Shown: piece by piece, positions 19,392 through 64,000 of the stretch
Layout of the letters: each line of letters opens with the position of its first letter
How positions within the stretch are numbered: position 1 is the stretch's first letter
Assembly: GCA_964405385.1 (NCBI GenBank)
Contig: CAYONS010000002.1
Location: 5,019 to 69,018 of the forward strand
Length of the DNA stretch: 64,000 nucleotides
Reading direction: 5' to 3'
Origin: an uncultured Syntrophothermus sp.
GTDB lineage: Bacteria > Bacillota > Syntrophomonadia > Syntrophomonadales > Syntrophothermaceae
The notes under the pieces: model-generated
Seen by the model: the letters and a program-made list of their open reading frames with translations, nothing else
What the model was told of the DNA's origin: nothing
The model's database searches: none
Translations under genes and position numbers: made by a program

Positions 19392-19423
19392 ATCTTCATT
19401 TCACTCCTTCCTGCTCATCTTCC

Positions 19424-21490: not shown

Positions 21491-22393
21491 TTAGGCCCCG
21501 GCGCTCTTGGAGGTACTGGTCGGGACGGCAGGAGCCGATTTTTTCAGGTAGGAAAACCAGTACAGCGTTCCCACGAAGAACCCGCCACCCACGATGTTTC
21601 CTAATGTAACCGGCACAAGATTTTTCAGGAAGAAGTTCTTCCAGGTAAATAGCTCAGCCACTTTAGCCTTAAAAGCGTCCATAGCAGCTATAGCCTCTGG
21701 GGGCAGGCTGCCGCCCGCAGCCAGTAGAGCTGCCTGCTCCGGAGTCAGGACGGTTCTTGCCGCCACATCCACTACTGCCGGTATCTTGGCCACTTCGAGA
21801 CCCATAGGGATAAAGAACATATTGGCAACGCTGTGTTCAAAACCGCTGGCAACGAAGGCCATGATGGGGAAGAAGCAAGAGAATATCTTGCCGACCACGT
21901 CCTTGCTGCCCAGGGCCAGCCATACTGCCATACATACGAGCCAGTTACAGAGAATGGCCCGGCAGAAGGCCGCGCTCCAGGTCAGGCTGAGTTTGCCTTG
22001 AGCAATAGCCAATGACTTGGCTCCTACCGCACCCTTGAACATGCCGGCCGAAACGGTGCCATCAGGCTGAATTCCATAAAATCCACCCACTATAATGTAG
22101 ACCAGGAGCAGTGAGCCCACCAGATTGGCAACCCAGACTACCACCCAGTTATACAACAATTCTCCCCAGGTGCTTTTGCCCTCCAGGGCGGAAACCATCA
22201 GGAACATGTTGTTCCCGGTGAACAGTTCCGCCCCGCCGATAACCACCAACATCAGGCCGACAGTAAATACGGCTCCGAACATGAACTGGCCGAAACCGTT
22301 GCCTAGGTATTTGGGTATATCGTGACCGACCATGGTAGCCAGATTGGCTCCAAATCCGATATACACCCCTGCCAATATACCGAGCACGAACAT
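21491..22393 (-). CDS. fdhC: formate/nitrite transporter family channel (FdhC/FocA); intact ORF starts at an internal Met, and the N-terminal 27 codons are cut off by an in-frame TAA
   Basis: 300-aa ORF of the FNT family (AELFTGN, GFEHSVANMF). The same frame upstream reads MNFLAPPEIAATACSVG-TAA-AKGKLPIAK-M, with an SD and ATG at 22472-22474. Confidence 0.85.
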   Translation of the reverse strand: MFVLGILAGVYIGFGANLATMVGHDIPKYLGNGFGQFMFGAVFTVGLMLVVIGGAELFTGNNMFLMVSALEGKSTWGELLYNWVVVWVANLVGSLLLVYIIVGGFYGIQPDGTVSAGMFKGAVGAKSLAIAQGKLSLTWSAAFCRAILCNWLVCMAVWLALGSKDVVGKIFSCFFPIMAFVASGFEHSVANMFFIPMGLEVAKIPAVVDVAARTVLTPEQAALLAAGGSLPPEAIAAMDAFKAKVAELFTWKNFFLKNLVPVTLGNIVGGGFFVGTLYWFSYLKKSAPAVPTSTSKSAGA

Positions 22394-50240: not shown

Positions 50241-50789
50241 TTGAAGACGTTACGCAGAGTGCACCTCTGGGCCGGAGTAGCTGTTGCCTTGTTTCTTCTT
50301 TTGCAATCGGTCACCGGGCTCATTCTCTCCAACACCCGTCCCGCAGGCCAGGGGCCCCCGTGGGCACGACCGGAATTTGTAACCAGTACGGATAGCAGCG
50401 GTCAGGAACCCTTTCCTCAAGTGGCAGGTCCCGGATTTCAAGGTAGGCGGGGTTTTTTTGAAGGATCAGCCGGTGAAACAAACCCCACTTGGGCCACAGC
50501 TAGGGAACTCCACGAAGGAAGGATAGGTAATTACGATTTTTCCCTGCTGCTGGATATAGCCGCTTTCGGTTTCATCCTGGTCACGGTTACCGGACTTATT
50601 CTTGCCTACAAAGTTCTGAGAGGACCGGGCCGCAAGTCAACACCCAAGGCGCTTGTGGCAACCGGGACACCTGAGCTCCGTGAGGAAACCAAGGTAGCCC
50701 CCGTCGGAGAAGAACACGGGTCTAGCCCTACAGGTGAGGCATCCGCCGATCCGACACATCCTCCGAAGGAGGAAGAAGGAAGTGAATAA
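50241..50789 (+). CDS. PepSY-associated transmembrane protein
   Basis: 182 aa. The N-terminus LRRVHLWAGVAVALFLLLQSVTGLIL is a typical PepSY_TM helix. A second TM segment and a Pro/Glu-rich tail follow. Confidence 0.65.
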   Translation: MKTLRRVHLWAGVAVALFLLLQSVTGLILSNTRPAGQGPPWARPEFVTSTDSSGQEPFPQVAGPGFQGRRGFFEGSAGETNPTWATARELHEGRIGNYDFSLLLDIAAFGFILVTVTGLILAYKVLRGPGRKSTPKALVATGTPELREETKVAPVGEEHGSSPTGEASADPTHPPKEEEGSE

Positions 50790-51870
50790 CATTCGCAATA
50801 TCTTGGTTGTCATTACTTGCCTTGCCGCCGTCACCTTCTGTTTCTCTCCCAGAGTGTCAGCATCGGATTCTTCTCAATATTTAAGTCTGGAAGATGCCGT
50901 GGATAGGGCCTTAACCTACAGTCCAGCTTTGAAGAGCAAAGAGCTATCAGTAGAACAGGCAGAATACCAGCGAGAGGCGGCGGCTTTGGCGGTTTCTTAC
51001 ACACCCACCGGGCAGGCCGATCCTGAAACGGAAAAAGCTTTTAATAATCTGGTTGCCAAAGACCTGAACTGGCAGGTAGCCAAAAAGGAGTTGTCCGCGC
51101 AAAGGGACTCAGTAATTATTCAAGTGTACCAGGCGTACTACAACGTGCTCACGGCCGAAGCTGCACTTGTCAGCGCCGAGAAAAACCTGGCTTATGCCGA
51201 TTTGCAGAAACGCTCGGCTGTTCTGAGACACCAGTTCGGAAAAGCCAGCCTCCTTGAAGTAAAACAGCAGGAAAACTCATACGAAACTGCCAAAGCCCAG
51301 TGGGATTCCGCCAGACAGAGCCTCGACGATGCCTACGTTAAACTCAACCAACTCATCGGGCTTTCCCCATCGGCTCGTCCCGTGCTCACCCATAGGCCGG
51401 CTTTCAAGCCGGTTGAAATCATCAGCTTAGATTCCCTGGTGTCACGGGTCCTTGAAGAAAGTCCAACCGTCAAGAGGGCCCAGCTCTCAGTCAACCAGGC
51501 CCAGATAGCTCTGGACATATACAGTTTCAGCGAAACCGAATACAATTCATATAAGTCTCAGCAGCTCTCTATAACCATGGCCGAGCAAAACTTAGTCTCT
51601 GTGAAAAGCCAGACGGAGCAGCAGGTCCGCTCTCTCGTCAGCAGCATTGTCCAACTGGAAAAAAGTTATCAAAGCCTTAAGAACATGTACGAGACGGCTG
51701 AAAAGAATCTGGAGTGGACCCGGCTCAAGCTAAAGTACGGGGTTGCCAGCCGCATCGAGCTGGCACAGGCGGAAGCAGAAGTCGCCAAGGCGTACCAGTC
51801 CCTCCTTCAAGCCCAGTCCCAACACGAAGTGTTGGCTAAAGCGCTAACTACTCCCTGGGCATACAGCTAA
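50782..51870 (+). CDS. TolC-family outer-membrane-factor-like efflux protein
   Basis: GTG 50782 after a GGAGGAAGAAGGAA SD. A signal peptide is present (CLAAVTFCFSPRVSA), and two coiled-coil OEP-type repeats follow. Confidence 0.75.
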   Translation: MNNIRNILVVITCLAAVTFCFSPRVSASDSSQYLSLEDAVDRALTYSPALKSKELSVEQAEYQREAAALAVSYTPTGQADPETEKAFNNLVAKDLNWQVAKKELSAQRDSVIIQVYQAYYNVLTAEAALVSAEKNLAYADLQKRSAVLRHQFGKASLLEVKQQENSYETAKAQWDSARQSLDDAYVKLNQLIGLSPSARPVLTHRPAFKPVEIISLDSLVSRVLEESPTVKRAQLSVNQAQIALDIYSFSETEYNSYKSQQLSITMAEQNLVSVKSQTEQQVRSLVSSIVQLEKSYQSLKNMYETAEKNLEWTRLKLKYGVASRIELAQAEAEVAKAYQSLLQAQSQHEVLAKALTTPWAYS

Positions 51871-51957
51871 AACCTCACCGGCGACAGTTATCGGCTTCAG
51901 TCAATGTGTTTTATCACGAGACTTAACTGTTACAGCTCGGGGAAAGGAGAGGAATCC

Positions 51958-53387
51958 GTGATAAAGAAAATTGTGAATGCGTGGGCGCGGACGTCAAAAA
52001 CTGCCAAGGCAGCCGTAGCTATACTCGCCCTGCTGACAGGAATCGCTGGGTGGAAGCTGATCGGGCAGAGTTCCAAGACCCCTGAATTAATCACCTACCG
52101 GGTGAGTTACGCTGATATCATACAAACCGTCAGCGCCTCGGGACAGATCGAACCGGTGCAAAGCGTTACCCTAACCTTTAAATCTCAAGGTTACGTGCAG
52201 GAATGTAAAGTTAAGGTCGGGGACCAAGTCAAGGCGGGGCAGGTTCTCGCGATAGAGAAAAGCGAAGACTTGGAAACCGCCTTGCCCCAAGCACAAGCCA
52301 GCCTTGACAACGCGAAAGCAAGCTACAGACGCCTTGTTGCCAACTATCCTCACAAGGTGGCTCAGGCCGAGGCTCAAGTCGCCCAGAGCAAAAACAATCT
52401 GGAGATGGCCGAAGCTGAATTGGAAAGGTCTGAACCCCTATACGAAGCCGGAGTAATCTCTCAATCTGAATTGGACTCGGCCCGGGCCAGCTACCAGTCT
52501 GCTCTAGCACAGTATCAGACTGCCCTCAGTAATCTGGAACTCACCAAAGACAAAGGCGATATCGAGATAGCCGCTGCTCAAGTCAAGTCTGCGGAAGCTC
52601 AAGTTGCCCAGGCCCAAAACAATCTGAGGAACTGCGTAATAACAGCCCCGTTTGACGGTTTCGTTGCCGCTATCACAGGCAGCACCGGCAGTTGACTGCA
52701 GCCGGAACAGCTTCCGAAGCGAGTTCCTCCCAGTTCAGTATTACCATCTTTTCCTCTGAACTCCAGTTGGCAGCCCAGATCAATGAAGCCGATATCGGCA
52801 AGGTTAAAGTCGGGCAAAAAGTCACCTTTACGGTTAATGCCTATCCGGACCGGGAGTTTACGGGCAGGCTTGTATCCCTGTCCCCCCTGGCGACGACGTC
52901 AAACAGCGTGCAGGTCTACGATGCCGTCATCAGTATTGATGACTACAAAGACTTGAGAGCCGGAATGCCGGCGTCTATTACCATTATCGTCGGCGAGAGT
53001 CTTAACGTGCTGGCCGTGCCGCAGTCGGCTTTGGACTATGGACAGGCCTATCTGGCCTCGTCTCGCGCGCGTTCGAGGAGCGGTGCCGGTACCAGGAGCG
53101 CCGTGCAGGAATCCTCTCGAGTCGGCGATAATGCTGCCTTGAATGAACGTGCTTCCATTAAGAAGCCGGTGGTCGTTCTCGCCGGTAATGAACAAACACT
53201 GAGATGGGTGGAAACCGGCCTGTCTGATGATGTGAGTGTTGAGATAAAGTCGGGCCTGAAGGAAGGAGATACAGTTATTACTGGCTCTATCAGCCAAAAG
53301 GCTGATTCAAGCGCTTCCACGAGCGACAGATCATCGAACCGAAACTACACCGCTCCCGGTTTCCCCGGCGGGCCCTTTATGCGATAG
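51958..53387 (+). pseudogene. HlyD/MacA-type periplasmic adaptor subunit, split by a 1-nt frameshift near 52690
   Basis: ORF 51958..52695 ends ...ITAPFDGFVAAITGSTGS*. ORF 52692..53387 continues the same family in another frame (LTAAGT...AQINEADIGKVKVGQKVTFTVNAYPDREFTG). Confidence 0.75.
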
Positions 53388-53398
53388 GGAGGAAAAGA

Positions 53399-54124
53399 GT
53401 GGTGAATGCAAATGCTCCCTTGATAAGGTGCTGTAATCTGACCAAGATCTACCCCCTTTCCGGAATAGAGGTGGCTGCCCTGCGAGGAATCGATCTTGAT
53501 ATATGCAGGGGTGAAATGGTTGCCATTGTAGGCCCCTCGGGATCCGGGAAGAGCACTTTGCTCAACATATTAGGCGGCATGGATAGGCAAACCAATGGCA
53601 CTTATATACTCGACGGCGTTGAGGTTAGCAAGCTTAATGACCGGGATCTTGCTGCTTTGCGTAACCAGAAGCTGGGCGTGGTCTTTCAGCGGTATAACCT
53701 GTTACCCCGGTACACTGCACTCGAAAATGTGAAATTGCCCCTTTACTACGCGGGTTACGATTCAAAGTCGGCTGAAAGCATAGCCACGGAAACACTGGAT
53801 ACCCTGGGCATACTAGGTCTGGCCCATCACCGTCCCAACCAGATGTCGGGTGGACAACAGCAAAGGGTAGCCATAGCCAGGGCTTTGGTCAACCGCCCGG
53901 CAGTTCTTTTGGCCGATGAACCTACCGGGGCCCTTGATTCCGTTACCAGCGAAGAGATAATGCAGCTTTTCCGGGAAGTCAATCGTACGCACCGGGTAAC
54001 GGTCATTGTCATAACCCACGAATCCAACATCGCTGAGTTCTGCGACCGCCGGGTAACAATGCGGGATGGATTGATAGTGAGTGATAAAGTGATAAAACAG
54101 GAGGATCACGATAAGAATGAATAG
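53399..54124 (+). CDS. MacB/LolD-type ABC transporter ATP-binding protein
   Basis: 241 aa with Walker A (GPSGSGKST), the signature MSGGQQQRV and Walker B (LLADEPTGALD). Confidence 0.92.
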   Translation: MVNANAPLIRCCNLTKIYPLSGIEVAALRGIDLDICRGEMVAIVGPSGSGKSTLLNILGGMDRQTNGTYILDGVEVSKLNDRDLAALRNQKLGVVFQRYNLLPRYTALENVKLPLYYAGYDSKSAESIATETLDTLGILGLAHHRPNQMSGGQQQRVAIARALVNRPAVLLADEPTGALDSVTSEEIMQLFREVNRTHRVTVIVITHESNIAEFCDRRVTMRDGLIVSDKVIKQEDHDKNE

Positions 54125-54138
54125 CCGATGATTTCAGG

Positions 54139-54573
54139 GTGATAAACAACGCCCAGATTCAAGAGCAAGCGGAGTCGGTCACCGGAATTCTGACCCTTTT
54201 TCTGGCAGCTGTAGCCGGCATATCCCTGATAGTGGGCGGTATAGGCATCATGAATATCATGCTGGTCTCGGTAACCGAGCGGACGCGGGAAATAGGTATT
54301 CGCAAGGCGGTAGGCGCTAGGCGCGAAGATATCCTCGCTCAATTCCTACTCGAAGCGGTGCTGATGTGTTTTACGGGATCCTTAATCGGCATCCTTGTCG
54401 GCGTCGCAGCCACGAAGGTCTTCACCTGGATCGTAGGATGGCCGACCAGCATATCGGCATCTTCCGTCATATTGGCCATCGCCACCGCCTGCACGGTCGG
54501 CGTTTTCTTCGGCTATTATCCTGCTTACCAAGCCTCGTCCCTAGACCCGGCCCAGGCCTTGAGCTATGAATAA
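54139..54573 (+). pseudogene. FtsX/MacB-type permease remnant (C-terminal ~145 aa only)
   Basis: Retains the last three TM helices (GGIGIMNIMLVSVTERTREIGIRKAVGA). TM1 and the ~250-aa periplasmic domain are absent. A vestigial ATGAATAG overlaps the ATPase stop. Confidence 0.7.
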
Positions 54574-54588
54574 GAATATCATGTATAG

Positions 54589-55377
54589 CTAAGCATAGCT
54601 ATGCAACCCGGGCATCAAATAATTCACTCCAAGAAACGTAAATAAGAGTATTAAAAACCCGATAATGACCATCCAGTCGCCTTTCTTCCCCTTCCATTCT
54701 TTTCTGCGGTGTAAATGTAGGTAAGTAGCATATACTATCCAGGTTATCAAAGCCCAGTTTTCTTTGGGATCCCAGCTCCAATAAGATCCCCACGCCTGTT
54801 CTGCCCAAACGGCTCCAAACAAGATTGATAAAGTCAACATGATGAATCCAACTCTTACTGCCGCATATACCCCATCATTCTTTTCTTCACTTTTGTTCTT
54901 CATCACATCAACCAAAGCCATTACAGCAGCCATCGTAAATCCGGCGTAAGCCACAACTGCTGTGACAACATGAAACGCCAGCCAAGGACTCTTCAGCGCT
55001 GGCATTAAATTACCGGCCTTAGTTAACTGCGCCTGCCCGTTGACCATCACAAATGCGATGAGGGAAGCCGCGATAACCATCACCATCCATCCCGATCGCT
55101 GGCCTGCAGCCTTTCTCGCTACTACTAGGTACACGAGCACAGTTACAAAAACGTAACTCAAGACAAACTCATGCCCGTTGGCGAGCGGCAGCCTACCCGT
55201 CACCGCTGCCCTTGTAATAATTACTGCAAAATTGCAAAAGGCGCCTAATGCCGTTAGCCACCGCGCCAATCTGTAAAAACAAACCCGGTCGTGCCAATTA
55301 CCCAACAGATAAAATATGGCTCCTGCAAAATACAGGACAAAAACAATACATAGTATCTCCCGAACGGACAGACTCAT
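54589..55377 (-). CDS. ccsA: cytochrome c biogenesis protein CcsA/ResC (system II haem handling)
   Basis: 262-aa polytopic protein with the WGSYWSWDPKENWALITW tryptophan-rich WWD motif. Confidence 0.9.
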   Translation of the reverse strand: MSLSVREILCIVFVLYFAGAIFYLLGNWHDRVCFYRLARWLTALGAFCNFAVIITRAAVTGRLPLANGHEFVLSYVFVTVLVYLVVARKAAGQRSGWMVMVIAASLIAFVMVNGQAQLTKAGNLMPALKSPWLAFHVVTAVVAYAGFTMAAVMALVDVMKNKSEEKNDGVYAAVRVGFIMLTLSILFGAVWAEQAWGSYWSWDPKENWALITWIVYATYLHLHRRKEWKGKKGDWMVIIGFLILLFTFLGVNYLMPGLHSYA

Positions 55378-55404
55378 CTATCCCCCCACCTCGACTTCCA
55401 TAAT

Positions 55405-56430
55405 TCAAATCCCCTCTTCAGGCATGCCGTGTCTATCGAAGATGCTGCGTTTGTCAACCGATCCGGCGGACATAGCTGCTATCACACCCGACACCAACAA
55501 CACCCCACCGGCGGCTGCTAAGCCAAGTCCGGGATCCGACTTGACCCTTAGGATAGTCATTGGCTCTACACCGTGGAATACCACGAATACGCCGTCATCC
55601 ACCATGACCTTCCTGCCCGGCTCAGCAGCTCCGACCCCGATTAACCTGTCATTCTCATAAACGGAGTAGAGTACACGAGCATCACCTGTTCTCGTGGAAG
55701 TCTGAAGCATACCACGTTGGGGGTCAAAATCCGTAAAATACCGGACTACCTTTACTACACGCCCGGTGCGCGGTATCCTGACATGTTCACGCTGACGCAC
55801 AAGTCGCTCCGGTTGAGAGACGGAATCTGCAACCGCTTCAACCTTAACTAAGTATGCAAAGCCTGTCTGGTATACCTTCATTCCCCCAATTACTAACGGG
55901 TGATTTACGCTTATCACCCGTTTCACTTTTTGCCCCTTTGAACTGTGTAAGGTTACGTGAGAATAGAATTGGGAAGGAGAGCCGTCTTCGTAGACTGCTA
56001 TATCAAAGGCATCCAGGGTCATGTAAACAGAGGCCTCCGCCTCGATATGGGGAGACAGATTAACCGTTTGCCCCTCCAAAACGGTTATCTCCCTGCTGTA
56101 ACCGAAGAAGTTATTGATTGCAGCTCCAATCAACACCAGGACGATACCCAAGTGCAACATGATAACCCCGGTATGCCGCATTATATAATTCGCGTTGGCT
56201 GCGGCTGCGCCACGCAGGAGCCGCGAGACAAACCGGTTCAATTTCGCAAAAGTGCACAGCACCAAGTTTGCAAGCAGCAGCAGGATTAAGAGCCGGAACA
56301 CAACCGCATGGAAAAACCCGGAGGGAAATGCCACACTTCCCACGGCCGTATGCAGCCCGATAAGAAAAAGCAAGACCAATCCAGTGTCCACCGATGAAAC
56401 AACACGGTAAAATCTTGTTGCGCGTGACAT
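55405..56430 (-). CDS. resB: cytochrome c biogenesis protein ResB/CcsB
   Basis: The start is trimmed to ATG 56428-56430 (MSRATRFYRVVSS) after an AGGAGAGGAAGC SD. It has N-terminal TM segments, a large extracytoplasmic loop and a C-terminal TM segment, and is paired with ccsA. Confidence 0.8.
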   Translation of the reverse strand: MSRATRFYRVVSSVDTGLVLLFLIGLHTAVGSVAFPSGFFHAVVFRLLILLLLANLVLCTFAKLNRFVSRLLRGAAAANANYIMRHTGVIMLHLGIVLVLIGAAINNFFGYSREITVLEGQTVNLSPHIEAEASVYMTLDAFDIAVYEDGSPSQFYSHVTLHSSKGQKVKRVISVNHPLVIGGMKVYQTGFAYLVKVEAVADSVSQPERLVRQREHVRIPRTGRVVKVVRYFTDFDPQRGMLQTSTRTGDARVLYSVYENDRLIGVGAAEPGRKVMVDDGVFVVFHGVEPMTILRVKSDPGLGLAAAGGVLLVSGVIAAMSAGSVDKRSIFDRHGMPEEGI

Positions 56431-56465
56431 GCTTCCTCTCCTAACCCGTTCTGTAACAGATACTT

Positions 56466-56996
56466 TTACTGCTGCCACCCTTCCGGAAGACTGTCCATCC
56501 ATTCAAACTGATGGCACTGAGCGCACATCACTTGCGATTCACGATGCATGCTATGACAGAGGTTGCACTCCTGTTCTCCGTTGTGATTGTCATGAGGGTT
56601 AGATTCCTCGAAGTCAGTCGCACTTTTCACCTTTTCAAAATCATGACAAGAGAGACAAAATTCTCTGGTCCCGAAGTCGCGCCTTGCCAGCGGCGTCTCA
56701 TAATCACCTGTCACGTATTTGACACCTTCGCTGATCTTATCTGATAGCGACTCTTGATGACAGTCGTGACAAGTTACGTCGTGTTCCGCGTGTTTATGGG
56801 CTAAGAGGTTGCCTTCATTCCACGAATCGTAATAAGGTTTGATGATATGGCAATAAGAACAAAAGCCCGGCTTCTCGCTGGCCTTCAAAAGGCCAAATCC
56901 TGATCCACTGCCTATCACTATCAGAACAGCGGCTATCAGCGCCAGGTTCCTCTTCTTTCCCGTCCATTTCCTTGTTTGGTCCTTCATTTCATCCAT
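56466..56996 (-). CDS. membrane-anchored multihaem cytochrome c (NapC/NirT/NrfH-like), five CxxCH motifs
   Basis: 176 aa with an N-terminal TM segment (LALIAAVLIVIGSG). Haem motifs are CSYCH, CHDCH, CLSCH, CNLCH and CAQCH. Confidence 0.85.
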   Translation of the reverse strand: MDEMKDQTRKWTGKKRNLALIAAVLIVIGSGSGFGLLKASEKPGFCSYCHIIKPYYDSWNEGNLLAHKHAEHDVTCHDCHQESLSDKISEGVKYVTGDYETPLARRDFGTREFCLSCHDFEKVKSATDFEESNPHDNHNGEQECNLCHSMHRESQVMCAQCHQFEWMDSLPEGWQQ

Positions 56997-57058
56997 AGCA
57001 CGCACCCCTTCTGGTCGGAATCTTCTGGTACCAACTGAACACGCTTTGGGAATTGCCC

Positions 57059-57547
57059 TTAATCGCCAAGTATAGAGCCCAAACCATTGCCCTTGTTAAC
57101 GTATTTCACCAACTCATTGGTTAATAGCCCTGTTAACAGCCCCGTAGGTACAGAAAACGCCAACATCCAAGGCAGGTAAAAGAACATACCAGGAAAACGC
57201 AGAACAAGTGTTGCCATGGCCAGCTGTCCTATATTGTGGAAGGCAGCTCCCAGAATGCTAATACCTACAATCCCCACTACATTACAGAATCTTAGCCCCA
57301 GAGCCATAACCGCAGCGGACGTAACGGCACCGGCAAAGCTCATAAGAAACCCCATGCCAAACAAGGTCCCCGCCAGCAAGGAGCCGAGAACCGTGCGCAA
57401 AATGACGATTTGCAGGGCCGTCCTAAAATCAAAGACTGCTAACGCCACCAAAGTAATAATGTTGGCCAACCCCAGTTTCACACCGGGAACGGGAACAGGA
57501 TTGGGAAACAGGCTTTCGAGGTAATGAAGAGCCGTGGCCTGAGCCAC
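57059..57547 (-). CDS. Gx-transporter / Hpre_diP_synt_I-family membrane protein (ECF S-component-like)
   Basis: 162 aa from GTG, with 4-5 TM segments and LESLFPNPVPVPGVKLGLANIITL. Family-like sequence (TKRLALIATF) continues upstream without a canonical start codon. Confidence 0.7.
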   Translation of the reverse strand: MAQATALHYLESLFPNPVPVPGVKLGLANIITLVALAVFDFRTALQIVILRTVLGSLLAGTLFGMGFLMSFAGAVTSAAVMALGLRFCNVVGIVGISILGAAFHNIGQLAMATLVLRFPGMFFYLPWMLAFSVPTGLLTGLLTNELVKYVNKGNGLGSILGD

Positions 57548-57593
57548 AAAAGTGGCAATTAGGGCCAGCCTCTTGGTCGATATCGTTCGATTT

Positions 57594-58523
57594 TCAGGTT
57601 CCAGTTAGGAATCCCTCCTTTCTCCTCGGCTGCACCAGCTGACGCCGACCGGAAGATGAAGATACGTATCCGGACGCGTTCAGCAACCTCATGATCTCGC
57701 AAGCCGCTTCTCGGGTGCTCTTGACATCTTTTTTGACATCGAAACCCTTGGCAGCAAGAGCCAGCAAGACCTGTAGATATTCGGGCAGGTCCAGGCAGTA
57801 TCGATTCAGGATTTCATGCTCCGCAACAAGCGCATCCACGCTGCCGAAAAACATTAGGCAGCCTCCGTCCAAAACGGCGATTTTATCAGCACTATTCAGT
57901 ATTCCTTTCAGATCGTGCGATATCATTATCGTCGTCTCGCGTCTTTCCTTGCGCTGCCTAATAATGTCGAAGACCAATCTCTTCCCGGCCGCATCCAAAC
58001 CCGCCAGTGGTTCATCCAGTACAAGTATCTCTGGGCGAATAGCCAAAATCCCGGCTATGGCTACTCGTCTTCGCACACCCCCACTCAACGTAACCGGATT
58101 AGCCTCGACAACGTTTTCCGGAGTCAGCCCGACTTGTGTTAAAGCGTGAAACGTTCTTTCCCGTACTTCGCTTTCCGGCAAACCCAGGTTCCTGGGGCCG
58201 TACGCAATTTCATCGTAAACCGTGGTCTGAAAGATCTGTTGTTCTGGATATTGAAACACCAAACCAACGGTTTTCCAAAGATCGCGGCTCGTTTGCGGAT
58301 CAGACGCATCGAGCCCACATATCTTTAAAGCACCCTTTTTCGGTCGGATCAACCCGTTAAGGTGTTGTGCCAGAGTAGACTTACCGGAACCATTAGGCCC
58401 GAATATTCCGATAAACTCTCCTCGATATATGGAAAGACTGATATCATTGAGAGCCTTGCGCTCGTAAGCCGAGCCAGGTGCATAGGTAAAAGAAAGATTG
58501 CTGATCTTTATAATCTCTGACAT
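57594..58523 (-). CDS. ecfA: energy-coupling factor (ECF) transporter ATPase
   Basis: 309 aa with Walker A (GPNGSGKST), the signature LSGGVRRRV, Walker B (LVLDEPLAGLD) and a ~25-aa C-terminal tail. Confidence 0.88.
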   Translation of the reverse strand: MSEIIKISNLSFTYAPGSAYERKALNDISLSIYRGEFIGIFGPNGSGKSTLAQHLNGLIRPKKGALKICGLDASDPQTSRDLWKTVGLVFQYPEQQIFQTTVYDEIAYGPRNLGLPESEVRERTFHALTQVGLTPENVVEANPVTLSGGVRRRVAIAGILAIRPEILVLDEPLAGLDAAGKRLVFDIIRQRKERRETTIMISHDLKGILNSADKIAVLDGGCLMFFGSVDALVAEHEILNRYCLDLPEYLQVLLALAAKGFDVKKDVKSTREAACEIMRLLNASGYVSSSSGRRQLVQPRRKEGFLTGT

Positions 58524-59347
58524 ATATATCCTACCAACTCGCCAACCGATTTAACGTTTGAAGGAATATTCAGTCCGCTTGCCTCCAACTCCCCGATAAG
58601 CTCGTAAATTTCCGGACAGCCGAGGCCCAGAGTTCTGAGTTCATTACTAAAGAAAACATCCCGGGGCGTGCCATCCAAAAGAACCGACCCCCGATCAAGC
58701 ATGACCAAGCGATCAGCCTGAATCAGATCCTCAGGGTCATGACTGATCAAGATGACGGTTATCCCCTGCTCCTTATTCAACATGTAAAGCTGGGACAAGA
58801 GATTTCGCCTGCTTGCCGGATCCAGCATAGAGGTGGGCTCATCGAGAACCAGATACTCGGGCAACATGGCCAGTACTGAAGCCAAGGCCACCATTTGTTT
58901 CTTTCCGCCCGACAAAAGGTGAGGTGCGTGGTATCGCTCGTCCTCAAGACCGCAGGTATGCAAAGCCCATTCTATCCGGCGCCTTATTTCGGCAAGAGGC
59001 AACCCTAAATTTTCGAGCCCGAAGGCAATTTCTTCCTCAACAATCGGGCACAGCAATTGATGATCGGGATTTTGGAAAACCATTCCCACCGAACGCCTGA
59101 TCTTTCCAAGATTGGCTGGCTGGTCTGTATTCATCCCGTTCACATAGACTTTTCCCGCTGTTGGTTTGATGAGCCCGTTAAGGAGACGGGCCAGGGTCGA
59201 TTTGCCCGATCCGTTCATCCCTAAGACACCAATATATTCGCCTTTGTTTATAGTGAGCGAAACATTGTGCAAAGCCAAAACAGCGTTCCCCGACGCGCCA
59301 CTATACTGTTTAGTCACATTAACCAGTTCAATTCCGGATACGGGCAT
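58508..59347 (-). CDS. ecfA: energy-coupling factor (ECF) transporter ATPase
   Basis: The start is trimmed to ATG 59345-59347 (MPVSGIELVNV) after a GAGGAG SD. Contains GMNGSGKST, LSGGKKQMV and LVLDEPTSMLD. Confidence 0.88.
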   Translation of the reverse strand: MPVSGIELVNVTKQYSGASGNAVLALHNVSLTINKGEYIGVLGMNGSGKSTLARLLNGLIKPTAGKVYVNGMNTDQPANLGKIRRSVGMVFQNPDHQLLCPIVEEEIAFGLENLGLPLAEIRRRIEWALHTCGLEDERYHAPHLLSGGKKQMVALASVLAMLPEYLVLDEPTSMLDPASRRNLLSQLYMLNKEQGITVILISHDPEDLIQADRLVMLDRGSVLLDGTPRDVFFSNELRTLGLGCPEIYELIGELEASGLNIPSNVKSVGELVGYICQRL

Positions 59348-59372
59348 GATGCCACTCCTCACATTACTTTGC

Positions 59373-60155
59373 CTAAATGACTGTTGCCACAGCAACCGTG
59401 AAAAGAACAGCAGCAATTGTCATCGCAACAAAATCCCGCCCGTGCATTTTGAGGCTGCTCAGGCGTAACAGATTTGGATGGGGGCTGTAACATCGGCTGT
59501 CCATCGCTTCGCCTAAATCAGCAGCCCTTGTTAAAGAAGCGTTGAATAAGGGAATTACTACGGCTGTGTAACTTTTTATCTTAACCATAATGCTGGGTGA
59601 ATCGAACTGAGCTCCCCGCGACCTCTGGGCGTTCTTGACGGTAGCCGCCTCTTCGAACACGGTAGGCAGAAAGCGAAACGAAATCCCTAAGACAGTGACA
59701 AGATTCTGAACAGGAATGTTCAATCGTCTTAGAGGGCTCATAAGAGCCTCTATCCCCGTAGACAGTCTTACGGGGGTAGTGGTCATAAGCAGCACTAAAG
59801 ACCCTATGAACAAGACGACCAGTCTTACTATGTTGATAGTTCCAGCCATTAGTCCCTCTCTGGTTAGGGCCAAGACTCCAACAGTAACAACAGGTTGCCC
59901 GTGAGTAAGCAATCCCTGGCAAAGCAGGGTAACGAGCAGCAGAGCCTTTATGCGGTAGATACTTTTCAACACAAGCCTCAAACTCAGTCCAGAAACCAAT
60001 ACGACCGCCAGCATCAGGGACAGCAACCCGAGCAAGTAATAAAGGTTGGTGCTGATCATCACGGAGATGACCGCCAAGGTGCAGCAGATTATCTTTGTCC
60101 TCGGATCCAGCGCATGAATTACGGAATCACCGTGGACGTACTGCCCTAGTTTCAT
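59373..60155 (-). CDS. ecfT: ECF transporter transmembrane (T) component
   Basis: 260 aa. The N-terminus DSVIHALDPRTKI is typical of EcfT/CbiQ. The conserved Arg-containing coupling helices (AQRSRGA) are present. Confidence 0.85.
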   Translation of the reverse strand: MKLGQYVHGDSVIHALDPRTKIICCTLAVISVMISTNLYYLLGLLSLMLAVVLVSGLSLRLVLKSIYRIKALLLVTLLCQGLLTHGQPVVTVGVLALTREGLMAGTINIVRLVVLFIGSLVLLMTTTPVRLSTGIEALMSPLRRLNIPVQNLVTVLGISFRFLPTVFEEAATVKNAQRSRGAQFDSPSIMVKIKSYTAVVIPLFNASLTRAADLGEAMDSRCYSPHPNLLRLSSLKMHGRDFVAMTIAAVLFTVAVATVI

Positions 60156-60205
60156 CGCCGTCTTCGAACCCCTTCGTAATCCTTATATCGGTTATCCTTC
60201 AGTTG

Positions 60206-60565
60206 TCAATCAGTTGTTATTTCCACAATCACCCTGTTAGGCATACATACGGCTATATCACCATATTTTTCTAACCATCCGGTGTGTACGCATATCAGAT
60301 TAGGGCAATCCGATTTCTCGAATCTGATTCTGCCCTTTTCCACCCGAATCAGATTGTGATAATTCCCCGATATCAATATGTTTCGAGGCTTTTCGACCTT
60401 GTCCAGATTGATGCGCTCAATTACCTTGTTGTCTTGAATGATAACCGCTATCCGCTCGCCGCTATGTTGCTTTCGAGAGAATTCTTTATGATACTTGAAG
60501 CCGGCTGCGCCGGCCATAATCCCAAAAGCCAGCAGGACAACTAAAAAAACCTTCTTCTTATCCAT
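60206..60565 (-). CDS. NusG domain II-containing (DUF1312) membrane-anchored protein
   Basis: The start is trimmed to ATG 60563-60565 (MDKKKVFLVVLLAFG). It has one TM segment and then a beta-rich domain with CPNLICVHTGW, as in NusG_II proteins. Confidence 0.7.
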   Translation of the reverse strand: MDKKKVFLVVLLAFGIMAGAAGFKYHKEFSRKQHSGERIAVIIQDNKVIERINLDKVEKPRNILISGNYHNLIRVEKGRIRFEKSDCPNLICVHTGWLEKYGDIAVCMPNRVIVEITTD

Positions 60566-60719
60566 TATGACTCCCTCTTCCCGGCGCTCGTTATCGATCC
60601 TCGAGCAGGAGAAACCGCAGCTTTTGTCTGGACTTATCATACCATGACAGGTCCCAAGAGCGATAAAGGACATGCGGGGAACCCAACTGGGGAAGGTCCC
60701 CGCATGTCGTCCAGAAACA

Positions 60720-62261
60720 TTAACTAGTCAAACCCTTAGCGTACAAGGCTGCATTCTTGCCAGCGGTTCTGCCGGTGTAGCAAGAGTATCCTTGGGCCGA
60801 ACCGGGAAGAGTTAACCCGTAAGTATCGCCGGTAAACCCGTCACAATCCAGTCCCGCAGCGTATAGACCTGCAATCGGCTTGTAGTCTTTGTTCAGGGCT
60901 TCCATTTTCTGATTAACCCTGATGCCGCCACACGTAGCCAGGTTAGCCACCTTGAGCCGGAAGCCGTAGAACGGTCCGGTTTCCACAGGATGCAGGTATT
61001 GCGGGTCCTTCCCATACTCTAAGTCTTTGCCCGTTTTGCAGTACTCATTGTAAGCTCTCACGGTCTCCAAGAAGGTATCCCGGTCAATACCCATTTTGTC
61101 AGCCAGCTCCTCCAGGGTGTCGGCCTTGAAAACAGAAGGCAGCTTCTTTTCGACCGCTTTCTGGAGCTCGGCCTCTAATTTGTCCAATTTTGTGCCCGGC
61201 GTTACATACATGCCGTAGCCAACCGTACAGCCCTCGGTTGCCAACCTCTTGACTTCGTTGCTGTCCATCACGGAAAAAGCCCGGTGCTGAGTCGTGACGG
61301 CATTGCCCGCACGGGTGTAATACCACACAACGTCTTCATTGCAGAAGCGTTTCCCGTCTTGGTTTACCCAGAGAGAGGGCTCCATGGCTCCTGCCGTATT
61401 GATATGAGAATCAATGGGCGTGCCTTCCAAAGTCAGACCGAGCTTCATTACTATCGCGCGTTCGCCCGTGAGAGCGCCGGCTGCTTGAGCCATCTTTATC
61501 CCGTCACCCGTGTGCCCAGGAGCTGCTCTGTCAACTAGGTTGTCCACGTCAACGCGCGTGAGTTCGTAAATCATTTCCTTGTTGTTCCCAAAACCGCCTG
61601 TGGCCAAAACGACCGCCTTAGCGTTGATGATTAGTTCTTTGCCATCCTTGGTCTTTGCCTTAACTCCGGCAACTTTCCCGTCCTTCATGATCAGTTCCGT
61701 GGCCGGGGTGCTCGTTAATATCTCGACACCCAGTTTTTCCGCTGCAGGCTTCATGTGTTCGTTGATGACAGTCTCTCCAAATCCTTCATAGACGTGCCAG
61801 GTCTTATTACCGGCACCCGTACTGGTTACCGTCTCGAATTTCACTCCCATGTCCATGAGCCATTGAATGTCCTCGCCGGCGTGCTTCATAACGTCTCTCC
61901 ACAGATTTCCGTCAACCCTGTAATTGGAAAACTCAAACTCTTCCCGCAGCAGTTCTTGCTGGTTGACCGTGATGCCCAATTCTTTTTGGATCGGGCTTTC
62001 GCAGCCGAATATACCTTCTGCAAAGTTCGTGCTTCCACCTAGAACACTCTGTTTCTCCAGCAATATTACTTTCGCGCCCTGACTGGCAGCTTCAATGGCT
62101 GCTGACATTCCGGCCATCCCTGAACCCACCACTACCACATCAGCTTCTTTCGCCTCTGCTTTACTTTCTTGTTTTTCGCCGCCAGCACCACCGCAACCAA
62201 CCAGGACAAACATCATAGCCAGTGCCAGGAATAACGCCAGTAACTTGCGAGCTTGTTTCAT
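60720..62261 (-). CDS. extracytoplasmic lipoprotein FAD-dependent oxidoreductase (soluble fumarate-reductase/flavocytochrome flavin-domain family), substrate unknown
   Basis: 513 aa with signal peptide and lipobox MKQARKLLALFLALAMMFVLVGC and no twin-Arg. Contains an FAD fold (VVVVGSGMAGMSAA) and the C-terminal GLYAAG motif. Confidence 0.85.
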   Translation of the reverse strand: MKQARKLLALFLALAMMFVLVGCGGAGGEKQESKAEAKEADVVVVGSGMAGMSAAIEAASQGAKVILLEKQSVLGGSTNFAEGIFGCESPIQKELGITVNQQELLREEFEFSNYRVDGNLWRDVMKHAGEDIQWLMDMGVKFETVTSTGAGNKTWHVYEGFGETVINEHMKPAAEKLGVEILTSTPATELIMKDGKVAGVKAKTKDGKELIINAKAVVLATGGFGNNKEMIYELTRVDVDNLVDRAAPGHTGDGIKMAQAAGALTGERAIVMKLGLTLEGTPIDSHINTAGAMEPSLWVNQDGKRFCNEDVVWYYTRAGNAVTTQHRAFSVMDSNEVKRLATEGCTVGYGMYVTPGTKLDKLEAELQKAVEKKLPSVFKADTLEELADKMGIDRDTFLETVRAYNEYCKTGKDLEYGKDPQYLHPVETGPFYGFRLKVANLATCGGIRVNQKMEALNKDYKPIAGLYAAGLDCDGFTGDTYGLTLPGSAQGYSCYTGRTAGKNAALYAKGLTS

Positions 62262-62591
62262 ACTCTGCCGCCTCCTTTTCCTATATTGCTTCTTTGTAAA
62301 GTTTTAAGACTATTTTCAACATCTGGGTTCAAGACGAGGTTGCGCTTCTTACCATGGAATCAGGTGCACAAGCCTTTAATGAGGAGTGGCCTTCTTAGTT
62401 GTAAAGGAAAGAGAGTTTCCGTACTCGATACCTATAACCCTGTTAGACTGTAACTGATCCGTTAGCAGGTTCAAGTCGGCACTTCTTTCACCCCCCTTCC
62501 GCGGCCACCCTCCGGACAATCAGTTACTCGTGGCGAAATTCGCTTGCGGATTGCCTTTTTGTCTGTTCGCCTTGTTTTGCCTGTATCTTGT

Positions 62592-62608
62592 TGCAAAGTT
62601 CATGCCGA
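62592..62608 (-). promoter_or_regulatory. candidate sigma-54 -24/-12 promoter facing the reductase operon
   Basis: Minus strand reads tcGGCATGaactTTGCAa. GG and GC are separated by exactly 10 nt, as in TGGCAC-N5-TTGC. It lies ~330 nt upstream of the 62261 start. Confidence 0.4.
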
Positions 62609-62994
62609 CACTAAAAGGGCGTTCTTTCGGCATATGGCAAAATCTGTGTCTCAGAAAAAAGTTTCATTAATGTTCTTTGAGACTTGACTCCGGCTTTTTC
62701 GTGCTGTATCTAAGAGTTAAGACCGGAAACAACGGTCCCGGTCAGAAAAGGACGCGGGCATACCACTGCTCCAGTAAATGCCTGTGCTCAGCGATTAACA
62801 CCTATCCTTGGGACGATAATGACCAATGCTCAGGGAAGACGCGATTCAACTGCGATTGGCATTTCGGTGTGAACAAGAGTCGGTTCGCTTTTGAGCGAAC
62901 GAAAACGGTGCTTTCTGGCGAATACCAGAGGCTCGGGATTGGCAGTTACATGGTGGAGGCAATCGATGGGCTGAACGAGGGGAGTGGTAGCACG

Positions 62995-64000
62995 ATGGGG
63001 TCTAGTCAGATATTTAGTCCTATAATAACAAAACTAGAAAGTACCGACAAAAGAGATCTTAATAGTAAAACTAAAGCTTTGATCAAAACAATTCGGGAAT
63101 ACAAGATAGACATTCTTAACCACAAGAGTCCTGATTCGACCACAGATTTGGTCCGCGCCGAACTCCTTGAATCCTGGATGAGATCCAAAAATTACGGCCT
63201 TGCTCTCTATAATTTTGGTTTTGCCCCAATCCTGGATGACGCTGGCTTGCGTCAGCTTCTTGAGAAGAAAGAATTGCTTTTGGTCGCTGCCGACCCATAT
63301 ATTAAAGAATTAGAAAACATGATGTACAACAACCCCAGTATGATACTCCTTTCCGACGAAAACGGGGTTATGCTCCGAGTAGCAACAGGGGAGCACAAGT
63401 TTTTCAAGAAGGCTACACAGGAGTTCGAGTTAGTTCCTGGAGTCAGATGGTCAGAAGATACCGTAGGAACCTGCGCCCACGTGATGACCCTCATCAAAGG
63501 AGTCCCCTACCAGCTGGCCAGTTCAGAACACTACTGCGAAAGCTACGAACGGTTCTCCTGCTCTTCCGCCCCTATTTTCGATTTGAACGGTAACATTGCA
63601 GCTACTCTTTCCATTGTCAGTCCCCACGTCCACCATCAAAACTCGCATTCTTTGGGCCTGGTGACCTCCATGGCCTGGGCTATCCAGAACCGGTTCCAAT
63701 TGATATTACGCGGGTACTTAGCAGAAACAGATTCCCTATCCGATGCCGACATCGTCTTAGTTGTCAACAAACGCGGTTTCATAACTGCTGCGAACAATAC
63801 TGCCAGACGGCATTTTAGCGGTGTGTCCAGCGTCACCGGGGTACCCGTTGAGTCTCTTCTCGGCCGTTTGTCTTTCATGAATGATGTATTAGCAGGAAAT
63901 TCCATGCAGGACGTGACAATCGAAACCGAAACCCTGAAGCTGGAGTTGAAATCTGCCCGACCCGTCATCGACGACCGGGGCAATATATACGGTCTGGTCT
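62995..64000 (+). CDS. AcoR-like transcriptional activator, N-terminal sensor part only (GAF-like domain + start of PAS); probably a sigma-54 enhancer-binding protein; runs off the right edge
   Basis: Manual translation is open for 335 codons to the window end. ELLESWMRSKNYG ... GTCAHVMTLIKGVPYQLASSEHYCESYERFSCSSAPIFDLNGNIAATLSIVS resembles the AcoR-type N-terminus. The AAA+ domain is not in the window. Confidence 0.65.
   Translation, partial: MGSSQIFSPIITKLESTDKRDLNSKTKALIKTIREYKIDILNHKSPDSTTDLVRAELLESWMRSKNYGLALYNFGFAPILDDAGLRQLLEKKELLLVAADPYIKELENMMYNNPSMILLSDENGVMLRVATGEHKFFKKATQEFELVPGVRWSEDTVGTCAHVMTLIKGVPYQLASSEHYCESYERFSCSSAPIFDLNGNIAATLSIVSPHVHHQNSHSLGLVTSMAWAIQNRFQLILRGYLAETDSLSDADIVLVVNKRGFITAANNTARRHFSGVSSVTGVPVESLLGRLSFMNDVLAGNSMQDVTIETETLKLELKSARPVIDDRGNIYGLV

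Follow-up and report, generated by a model that had tools for sequence, protein, structure and literature searches.

A nine-gene operon in an uncultured Syntrophothermus encodes a putative extracytoplasmic ene-reductase together with an EetA/EetB-ECF flavin module, a multihaem cytochrome and a cytochrome c maturation pair

We analyzed a 64,000-nucleotide (nt) stretch of DNA from an uncultured Syntrophothermus sp. (contig CAYONS010000002.1, positions 5,019 to 69,018; hereafter the window), in which nine minus-strand genes running from position 62261 to 54589 encode a flavin adenine dinucleotide (FAD)-binding oxidoreductase, an energy-coupling factor (ECF) transport module, a multihaem cytochrome and two cytochrome c maturation proteins. 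Mechanically called open reading frames (ORFs), Pfam and NCBIfam matches and an independent gene call on L003, the contig of the window's organism, concur on this layout. Along the operon from 5' to 3' the intergenic gaps are 154, 50, 25, -16, 46, 62, 35 and 27 nt, in agreement with a sequence-only reading made earlier, which had listed nine genes with gaps of 16-155 nt or small overlaps. As far as can be judged from the sequence, the nine genes would be co-transcribed. They are, in order:

60720..62261, minus strand: FAD_binding_2 (fumarate-reductase-like) oxidoreductase, 513 amino acids (aa); PF00890, E 6e-56, 190.8 bits
60206..60565, minus strand: EetA, 119 aa, with an N-terminal membrane anchor and an extracytoplasmic NusG_II domain; PF07009, E 4.4e-29
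59373..60155, minus strand: EcfT, the ECF transmembrane component; PF02361 CbiQ, E 2e-33
58508..59347, minus strand: EcfA1, ECF ATPase; TIGR04520, 326.3 bits against a cut-off of 315
57594..58523, minus strand: EcfA2, ECF ATPase, overlapping EcfA1 by 16 nt; TIGR04521, 310.7 bits, marginally under the cut-off of 330
57059..57604, minus strand: EetB-family ECF-S-like subunit; PF07456, E 3.6e-44, model positions 3-147 of 147
56466..56996, minus strand: cytochrome c, 176 aa, with an N-terminal membrane anchor and five CxxCH motifs; PF03264, PF14537
55405..56430, minus strand: ResB (CcsB-type) protein of system II cytochrome c biogenesis, 341 aa; PF05140, E 2e-30
54589..55377, minus strand: CcsA/ResC-type haem-handling subunit; TIGR03144, 217.7 bits against 187.6; PF01578, E 2.5e-46

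At the start of the flavoprotein, MKQARKLLALFLALAMMFVLVGC forms a signal of the Sec type that has an LVGC lipobox and lacks a twin arginine (RR), just as the sequence-only reading had described it. More than 20 relatives retain the lipobox. An AlphaFold2 (AF2) model of the protein has a predicted local distance difference test (pLDDT) score of 90.6, with residues 20-32 forming a disordered tether. Foldseek gave Fcc3, UrdA and KstD as the best matches to this model (1d4c at E 4e-41) and showed that the fold is also common to 3-ketosteroid dehydrogenases and cyclohexanone dehydrogenase. A domain and motif search of the protein revealed neither an FMN_bind domain nor a CxxCH or flavinylation motif; with no CxxCH, a fused N-terminal tetrahaem domain of the Fcc3 type is not present.

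JGI and UniRef annotate relatives of this protein as 'fumarate reductase flavoprotein subunit', and together with the match to the Fcc3 fold this would fit an ordinary extracytoplasmic fumarate reductase. We mapped the Fcc3 residues onto the flavoprotein by phmmer alignment to 1D4D; at 27% identity, the positions of H365 and R402 are less certain in this alignment than those of the HHTMGG segment and R545. Fcc3 H365 corresponds to L274, R402 to Y315 (with an Arg two residues further on), H504/H505 to L441/A442 and R545 to T484. The segment HHTMGG aligns with LATCGG (residues 441-446), the stretch that had led to the earlier suggestion that fumarate may not be the substrate; rather than being all intact, the catalytic residues of fumarate reductases are replaced. 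The TIGR01813 model (flavocytochrome c) scored 223.3 bits, below its cut-off of 285.45, TIGR01812 (succinate dehydrogenase/fumarate reductase flavoprotein) scored 65 bits versus 567, and the best family match was to vinylphenol reductase VprA. Because the residues are replaced and TIGR01813 is below its cut-off, we concluded that the flavoprotein is not a fumarate reductase. We ruled out this candidate by the residue mapping and leave it barely any residual probability.

VprA (NF053717), which the sequence-only reading had not mentioned, is by sequence the closest characterised relative of the flavoprotein, and the match of 504.2 bits lies just under the family cut-off of 600 bits. The flavoprotein is about 44% identical to VprA-class proteins; against the VprA model, the Lactobacillus VprA class scores about 820, the relative P0025 661 and the clade of the window protein 452-485. 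VprA of Lactiplantibacillus plantarum has the same catalytic domain and has likewise lost the fumarate-binding residues, but is cytoplasmic, is under LysR control and has neither a cytochrome nor an exporter (PMC10295242). Its substrates are vinylphenol, vinylcatechol and vinylguaiacol (PMC10295242). The flavoprotein is probably a catalytic ene-reductase made as a Sec/signal peptidase II lipoprotein. Since VprA is the nearest characterised enzyme, our working guess for its substrate is a vinyl-aromatic or similar activated, enoate-like alkene, and crotonate, acrylate and like enoates may also qualify. P0025, a lipoprotein with a fused FMN_bind domain, exceeds the VprA cut-off with 661 bits, a sign that vinylphenol-type reductases may also exist outside the cytoplasm.

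The ECF module downstream of the reductase gene had been regarded as orphan, a label that does not hold: the PF07456 protein is EetB and the NusG_II protein is EetA, beside EcfT and two EcfA ATPases, so that the complete gene set of a putative flavin exporter is present in the window. EetA and EetB were first found as extracellular electron transfer genes, and Data Set S1 of PMC9973259 labels PF07009 EetA and PF07456 EetB. In Listeria, EetB was shown to bind FAD and to be similar to ECF-S subunits (Rivera-Lugo et al. 2023, PMC9973259); the export of flavin for extracytosolic flavinylation depends on it, on FmnA, a paralogue of ECF-T, and on ECF ATPases (PMC9973259). As the eetB marker, PF07456 adjoins ECF-T in 291 genomes, ECF-A in 796, eetA in 3,328 and apbE in 2,169 (PMC9973259). 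We also considered a cobalt/nickel ECF importer and rejected it, as no CbiM/CbiN is present and the S-like subunit is EetB.

The mechanical ORF call places the start of EetB at a GTG at 57547 (162 aa). A conserved N-terminal sequence, STKRLALIA, lies in frame upstream of this GTG, in a region that has no ATG, GTG or TTG. The start is likely a CTG at 57604 behind the strong ribosome-binding site AAGGAGGG, which would give a protein of 181 aa and an overlap of 11 nt with ecfA2, and the gene caller chose the corresponding CTG for EetB of an S. lipocalidus metagenome-assembled genome (MAG, L085). With this start, automatic ORF calls drop 19 residues from the first membrane helix.

Pfam and NCBIfam searches detected neither ApbE nor FMN_bind among the nine proteins (an ApbE elsewhere in the genome is possible), the nine also lack a flavinylation motif, and tblastn detected neither an FMN_bind domain nor a second ECF set in the window. 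As a Sec substrate the flavoprotein crosses the membrane unfolded and without FAD, and export without the cofactor calls for a supply of FAD on the outside. Tat (twin-arginine translocation) substrates fold around FAD in the cytoplasm, and the stand-alone reductases with separate cytochromes Mrd, Wolinella FccA and Cgr2 are Tat substrates. On the simplest reading, the exporter would supply FAD to load the apo-enzyme outside the cell, independent of ApbE; the direction of ECF transport and the loading of FAD outside the cell would be as suggested by analogy with Listeria. EetA carries the motif DCPxxxCVxTGWL...AxCxPN, invariant in 9 homologues, and its gene directly follows that of the reductase even in loci with no EetB or ECF ATPase genes close by (Dehalobacter sp. 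DCM L001 10001-12058; L011 11803-12150). This placement and the cysteine motif hint that EetA may have the flavoenzyme client as a partner in addition to the transporter.

The ECF module could also work in the opposite direction and import riboflavin, flavin mononucleotide (FMN), FAD, or a substrate or product of the reductase, with the PF07456 protein as an ordinary S component and FAD reaching the flavoprotein by another route. ECF transporters are classically importers, export by EetB is known in one organism only, and EcfT, EcfA1 and EcfA2 are ordinary in sequence. We nevertheless regard import as improbable, because PF07456 is a family with demonstrated export and FAD binding, because the module is accompanied by the extracytoplasmic partner EetA and is linked to Sec-exported flavoproteins and not to cytoplasmic (VprA) or Tat-type members, and because a Sec-exported protein with non-covalent FAD requires FAD from outside.

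The second client of a cofactor-delivery system in the operon is the cytochrome. Its N-terminus consists of a KKR segment and a hydrophobic helix followed by CSYCH, the first haem site, and the five CxxCH motifs of the membrane-anchored cytochrome recognized by the sequence-only reading are all conserved in four homologues of other genera (L001, L005, L007, L010). PF03264 (NapC/NirT) scores 34.7 bits (cut-off 24.1) and aligns to positions 11-73 of the 174 in the model, and the C-terminal part is cytochrome-c3-like (PF14537, 47.6 bits). Whereas NapC, CymA and NrfH have four haems, the window cytochrome has five. It scores 84.9 against a cut-off of 340 with the Cgr1 model and 30.8 against 134 with NrfH, and is by these scores distantly Cgr1-like and not NrfH. 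ResB matches PF05140 with 106.4 bits against 24.6, with partial model coverage, and CcsA exceeds its TIGR03144 cut-off and contains the WWD motif WGSYWSWDPKENW, so that the system II pair proposed earlier stands. By analogy, quinol would be the electron donor to the cytochrome.

Electrons might instead flow the other way, from a dehydrogenase or desaturase (KstD- or TcuA-like) oxidising an external compound, via the cytochrome, into the quinone pool. In principle, enzymes of this flavoprotein family can run in either direction, the 3-ketosteroid and cyclohexanone dehydrogenases mentioned above have the same fold, and the TcuA and KstD models gave sub-threshold matches to the flavoprotein. Yet the closest characterised relatives (VprA, Fcc3, UrdA, Mrd and Cgr2) are reductases, characterised NapC/NirT-type cytochromes oxidise quinol, and a syntroph short of menaquinol-level electron disposal would gain nothing from more menaquinol. 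We therefore consider a reversed chain very unlikely.

Upstream of the flavoprotein gene, and immediately downstream of it, lie the following features, of which the promoter, the divergent activator and the hairpin after the reductase gene had also gone unmentioned in the earlier reading:

62908..64000, plus strand: 5' part (364 codons) of a divergent gene for a sigma-54 enhancer-binding activator; Sigma54_activat (E 7e-66), AAA_lid_14, HTH_8
62648..62683, no strand assigned: inverted repeat GTCTCAGAAAA-N14-TTCTTTGAGAC, candidate activator-binding site, about 40-75 nt upstream of the -24 element
62592..62607, minus strand: sigma-54 -24/-12 promoter CGGCATGAACTTTGCA, found by pattern search
62262..62581, minus strand: 5' leader of about 320-330 nt, from the promoter to the flavoprotein ATG
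60669..60708, minus strand: hairpin of GACATGCGGGGA, a 16-nt loop and TCCCCGCATGTC; dG -27.4 kcal/mol

The pattern GGCAYG-N4-TTGCW has this one match in 64 kb, with 0.11 expected by chance. At the corresponding site in S. lipocalidus, 338 nt before the ATG, there is a perfect TGGCACGACTTTTGCA, and in Dehalobacter TGGCACATTATTTGCA lies upstream of its unit. We read the operon as a unit that is probably controlled by sigma-54. The GTCTCA...TGAGAC arms of the inverted repeat are conserved in S. lipocalidus, and the repeat is at most a candidate binding site for the activator. The full activator has 725 aa in the L003 contig, and related activators adjoin the cluster in L001, L005, L006, L010 and L084. 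No significant Pfam match was obtained for its N-terminal 390 aa, a region with a weak match to DhaR in the PDB (E 4e-4), a weak IclR_C match and weak GAF/PAS-type similarities; the S. lipocalidus orthologue has a weak precomputed MimR_N match. All these matches are uninformative on the ligand.

The length of the leader and islands within it (e.g. GGGGGTGAAAGRAGTGCCGACTTGAAC and TGGTAAGAAGCGCAACC) are conserved with S. lipocalidus, the islands being limited to Syntrophothermus loci. Its fold is no better than that of shuffled sequence (z -0.46), and it matches no Rfam family, known riboswitches included; the Rfam scan of 50-64 kb (E<=1) gave one chance-level match inside a coding region. The two-species alignment, with too few sequences for a firm call, contains a possible conserved long-range helix with one compensatory change.

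The hairpin downstream of the reductase gene has a 12-bp GC-rich stem and begins 12 nt past the flavoprotein stop codon. Related hairpins occur at the same position in the loci L001, L005, L006, L008-L012, L084/85 and L093-95 (consensus ACATGMAGGRAAC...GTTTCCTKCATGT), which include loci of Dehalobacter, Desulfitobacterium, Gracilibacteraceae, Syntrophomonadaceae and S. lipocalidus; examples are L001 11602-11651, L005 11568-11617, L006 1676-1726, L008 11564-11622, L010 11582-11632 and L084 11548-11598. In the RNAalifold prediction, 5 of the 14 pairs carry compensatory double changes. A search with a covariance model gave a single copy in each locus, and this also held for loci outside its building set (L011, L084, L085, L093, L094 and L095). 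The tail has no U-tract, and being not U-rich it does not make the hairpin a textbook terminator. A scan for consensus terminators gave 11 sites versus 10.7 in shuffled sequence and missed the conserved hairpin because its loop exceeds 8 nt. The earlier statement that no internal terminator is visible needs to be qualified by this hairpin, which is strong (dG -27 kcal/mol) and conserved, although it lacks a U-tract. In our reading, it may stabilise the 3' end of the mRNA or act as a leaky terminator, and so set how much reductase is made relative to the accessory proteins.

We then looked at the distribution of the gene set in a locus scan with a 12-sequence flavoprotein alignment as query; the scan did not return the S. 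lipocalidus locus, which was recovered by exact protein look-up. About 14 related loci, which belong to Syntrophomonadaceae, Desulfitobacterium and relatives, have the reductase gene linked to the exporter, an arrangement conserved across several Firmicute families. Flavoprotein, EcfT, EcfA1, EcfA2 and EetB are found together in L003, L084 and L085 (S. lipocalidus), L005 (Desulfitobacterium sp. Sab5), L006 (a Gracilibacteraceae MAG), L008, L009, L012, L094 and L095 (Syntrophomonadaceae), L010 (a Bacillota MAG) and L092, and EetA accompanies the full exporter set in all of these save the contig-truncated L009. L007 has flavoprotein, EetB and EetA; Dehalobacter L001 has EetA alone beside the reductase gene, and L011 has EetA and an EcfT fragment only. 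The clade of Sec lipoproteins (at least 56% identity) bears the exporter next door, in Coriobacteriia relatives an RR accompanies the lipobox and ECF genes are missing from the vicinity, and the Lactobacillus VprA proteins have no signal peptide. Hidden Markov models built from the cluster genes found no EetB, EetA or EcfT in about 70 loci with more distant flavoprotein relatives.

The electron-input side is more variable. A cytochrome gene lies near the reductase gene in L001, L005, L007, L010, L084 and L092, and ResB and CcsA are nearby in L001, L010, L084 and L092. Since the Syntrophomonas-type loci have no cytochrome within reach, the cytochrome/maturation block is a lineage-specific addition to a reductase-exporter core. 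Within the reductase family, the input variants are a cytochrome, a fused FMN_bind domain, a separate FMN_bind protein, Tat export with nothing adjacent, and a cytoplasmic form. The loci with alternative input modules (L088 6432-8491; L089 5950-8052; L090 3030-4907) are those of P0015 and P0016, where a stand-alone small FMN_bind protein is encoded directly downstream of the reductase, and of P0025 with its fused FMN_bind domain.

These variants bear on flavin-shuttle extracellular electron transfer, in which the exporter would release flavin as a diffusible mediator, the cytochrome and flavoprotein would reduce this flavin (or humics or metals) and no specific organic acceptor would be involved. 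Such a role would suit a syntroph in need of electron sinks and the discovery of EetA and EetB as extracellular electron transfer genes, and multihaem cytochromes reduce flavins in other organisms. It is quite improbable here, however: the flavoprotein falls within a substrate-specific ene-reductase family beside VprA, the sigma-54 activator with its putative small-molecule sensor domain points to a specific inducer, and relatives swap the input module (FMN_bind, cytochrome, none) and keep the catalytic protein, which argues that the flavoprotein is the terminal enzyme.

What can be read directly from the DNA is which genes the operon contains, their motifs and protein families, the promoter, the synteny and the covariation in the hairpin. 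In our view, the operon is probably an inducible module, complete in itself, for assembling and operating a reductase on the outside of the cytoplasmic membrane. A small molecule would act on the divergent sigma-54 activator, which would switch on the -24/-12 promoter at 62592-62607 and give a transcript of nine genes, with the hairpin after the first gene probably raising the ratio of reductase to accessory message. The reductase would be exported unfolded by Sec and anchored to lipid at Cys23. EcfA1, EcfA2, EcfT and EetB together with EetA would pump FAD out, and the apoprotein would bind it non-covalently outside; ResB and CcsA would carry haem out of the cell and bind it to the membrane-anchored cytochrome at its five CxxCH sites. 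Electrons would then pass from menaquinol through the NapC/NirT-like N-terminal module to FAD and on to the activated C=C of an external organic acceptor. This keeps the extracytoplasmic quinol-cytochrome-flavoenzyme chain of the sequence-only reading as the best one, with a non-fumarate acceptor and a quinol donor placed by analogy, as are the direction of catalysis and the substrate class.

Several observations weigh against this module. The NapC/NirT match of the cytochrome is limited to the N-terminal third of the model, and the direction of ECF transport is known just for Listeria EetB. The exporter linkage is frequent and not obligatory: the closest relative outside Syntrophothermus (L002/L004), 74% identical and a Sec lipoprotein, has no ECF or cytochrome gene within 10 kb, and the loci of P0015 and P0016, whose partner is a small FMN_bind protein, are free of ECF genes in the vicinity. 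Syntrophomonas-type L008, L012, L094 and L095 have the exporter and no cytochrome within reach. The hairpin could act as a partial terminator that uncouples the downstream genes, and the low identity behind the Fcc3 residue mapping belongs here as well.

Comparison with characterised systems places each part of the module in known territory. Closest on the transporter side is Listeria monocytogenes EetA/EetB-FmnA-EcfA/A' (PMC9973259), which like the window combines PF07456, PF07009, ECF-T and two ECF ATPases in a Firmicute, with clients that are Sec-exported and in need of flavin outside the cell. The exporter of Listeria, like those of the published genomic survey, goes with ApbE/FmnB and covalently flavinylated FMN_bind proteins, whereas the window operon has neither gene and instead has a client that would bind FAD non-covalently, a c-type cytochrome as the wire and the five transporter genes in one operon with the client. 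On the reductase side, Eggerthella lenta Cgr1/Cgr2 (PMC5953540) likewise has a membrane NapC/NirT-like multihaem cytochrome beside a secreted fumarate-reductase-family FAD enzyme. Cgr2 is inducible and reduces the activated C=C of a non-fumarate substrate, as we propose for its window counterpart, but it is a Tat substrate with [4Fe-4S] cluster(s), in contrast to a Sec lipoprotein with a dedicated FAD exporter; the two cytochromes are distant, and the window operon adds a cytochrome maturation system.

The two-component class of cytochrome plus fumarate-reductase-like reductase (Cgr1/2, Mrd/Mcc, FccABC) has been described with 147 clusters (PMC8238504). The window has the layout of this class, with a separate multihaem cytochrome gene, and not its Tat export. 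Mrd/Mcc resembles the window in being a two-component periplasmic flavoprotein reductase with a separate multihaem cytochrome in one operon that is not a fumarate reductase; unlike the window enzyme, Mrd and FccA are Tat-exported, soluble and from Gram-negative hosts, their operons have no flavin exporter or haem lyase, and Mcc is a soluble tetrahaem protein. Shewanella Fcc3/CymA with Bfe offers another parallel: a Sec-exported flavoenzyme that needs periplasmic FAD is fed by a quinol-oxidising NapC/NirT cytochrome. Fcc3 differs from the window enzyme in that it combines flavoprotein and haem domain in one fused protein, its exporter belongs to the multidrug and toxic compound extrusion (MATE) type and is encoded elsewhere, and the substrate is fumarate. 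The analogies to Cgr1/Cgr2, Fcc and CymA drawn in the earlier reading were apt. A flavin exporter in some Gram-negative bacteria is also mentioned in PMC9973259.

Each part is thus known (the two-component reductase, the EetAB-ECF exporter, system II maturation and sigma-54 control). What is new, judging from the genes, is the apparent coupling of a flavin exporter to a non-flavinylated Sec-lipoprotein reductase without ApbE, and the presence of both cofactor-delivery systems and both their clients in one operon of a syntrophic fatty-acid oxidiser. A literature search on this operon in Syntrophothermus found nothing relevant, and the genus is not listed in the supplement parts covered for PMC9973259 and PMC8238504. 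An ApbE-free role of the exporter in FAD supply is not what the 2023 paper (PMC9973259) emphasised; the window appears to extend ECF-type flavin export beyond ApbE-dependent flavinylation to the supply of non-covalent FAD to a Sec-exported enzyme. The operon is a compact genetic test case for cofactor delivery outside the cell, and the gene set could serve as a cassette for heterologous surface-displayed flavocytochrome reductases in Gram-positive hosts. For syntrophs thought to rely on methanogens for electron disposal, an inducible extracytoplasmic reductase may be a hidden electron outlet; discovery of the inducer or substrate could permit axenic growth and could reveal vinyl-aromatic or enoate transformation in anaerobic digesters.

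A bolder and distinctly speculative combination, which we would not expect to hold as a whole, takes EetA/EetB-ECF as a general ApbE-independent FAD inserter for Sec-exported flavoenzymes, with EetA as the outside hand-off, and the operon as a hidden menaquinol-level sink for syntrophs. If both were true, the 'obligately' syntrophic Syntrophothermus and Syntrophomonas could oxidise fatty acids without a methanogen whenever the organic acceptor is present.

The same nine genes, in the same order and with the same divergent regulator, are present in the S. lipocalidus type strain TGB-C1 (CP002048). The flavoprotein and the cytochrome sit in 90%-identity clusters with Syntrophothermus lipocalidus proteins. 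Between the two genomes the flavoprotein is 94% and the other eight proteins are 68-86% identical, so that the window represents a Syntrophothermus species other than S. lipocalidus; the sequence-only reading had not recognised the organism as a syntrophic Syntrophothermus. The remaining window matches a sporulating syntroph, with SpoIIE, SpoIIR, a HydABC-like [FeFe] hydrogenase, FocA and a selenocysteine formate dehydrogenase. The catalytic subunit of the latter (22731-25439, minus strand) is split into two ORFs by an in-frame TGA at 24369-24371, which lies inside the motif DHCARL-U-HSV and thereby identifies a selenocysteine enzyme. It adjoins NuoF-like genes, FocA (21491-22393) and the hydrogenase (17667-20647), a group that makes up an electron-disposal set typical of syntrophs.

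The sequence-only reading had judged by eye that this segment is less GC-rich; computation agrees, with a modest difference. GC is 0.498 in the operon versus 0.534 in the remaining window, and GC at third codon positions (GC3) is 0.50-0.59 versus mostly 0.56-0.70 elsewhere in the window. The flanks of the block are wholly different in the two genomes: PIN/MazE toxin-antitoxin pairs and DndB in TGB-C1 (L084 17826-21542), and efflux genes in the window (50734-54573). As the flanks differ, the regulator-plus-operon block behaves as a unit, and it may sit in a variable region. The GC content, 3.6 points lower, and the differing flanks are suggestive of horizontal transfer and no more; we claim no recent transfer.

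The efflux locus (50734-54573, plus strand) converges on the operon. It encodes two proteins with OEP/TolC-like matches, the second of which also has membrane-fusion-type matches, a membrane-fusion protein apparently in two ORFs (51904-52695 and 52692-53387), an ATP-binding cassette (ABC) ATPase and an FtsX-domain protein of just 144 aa. The locus may be partly decayed, and its TolC-like genes are notable for a Firmicute lineage.

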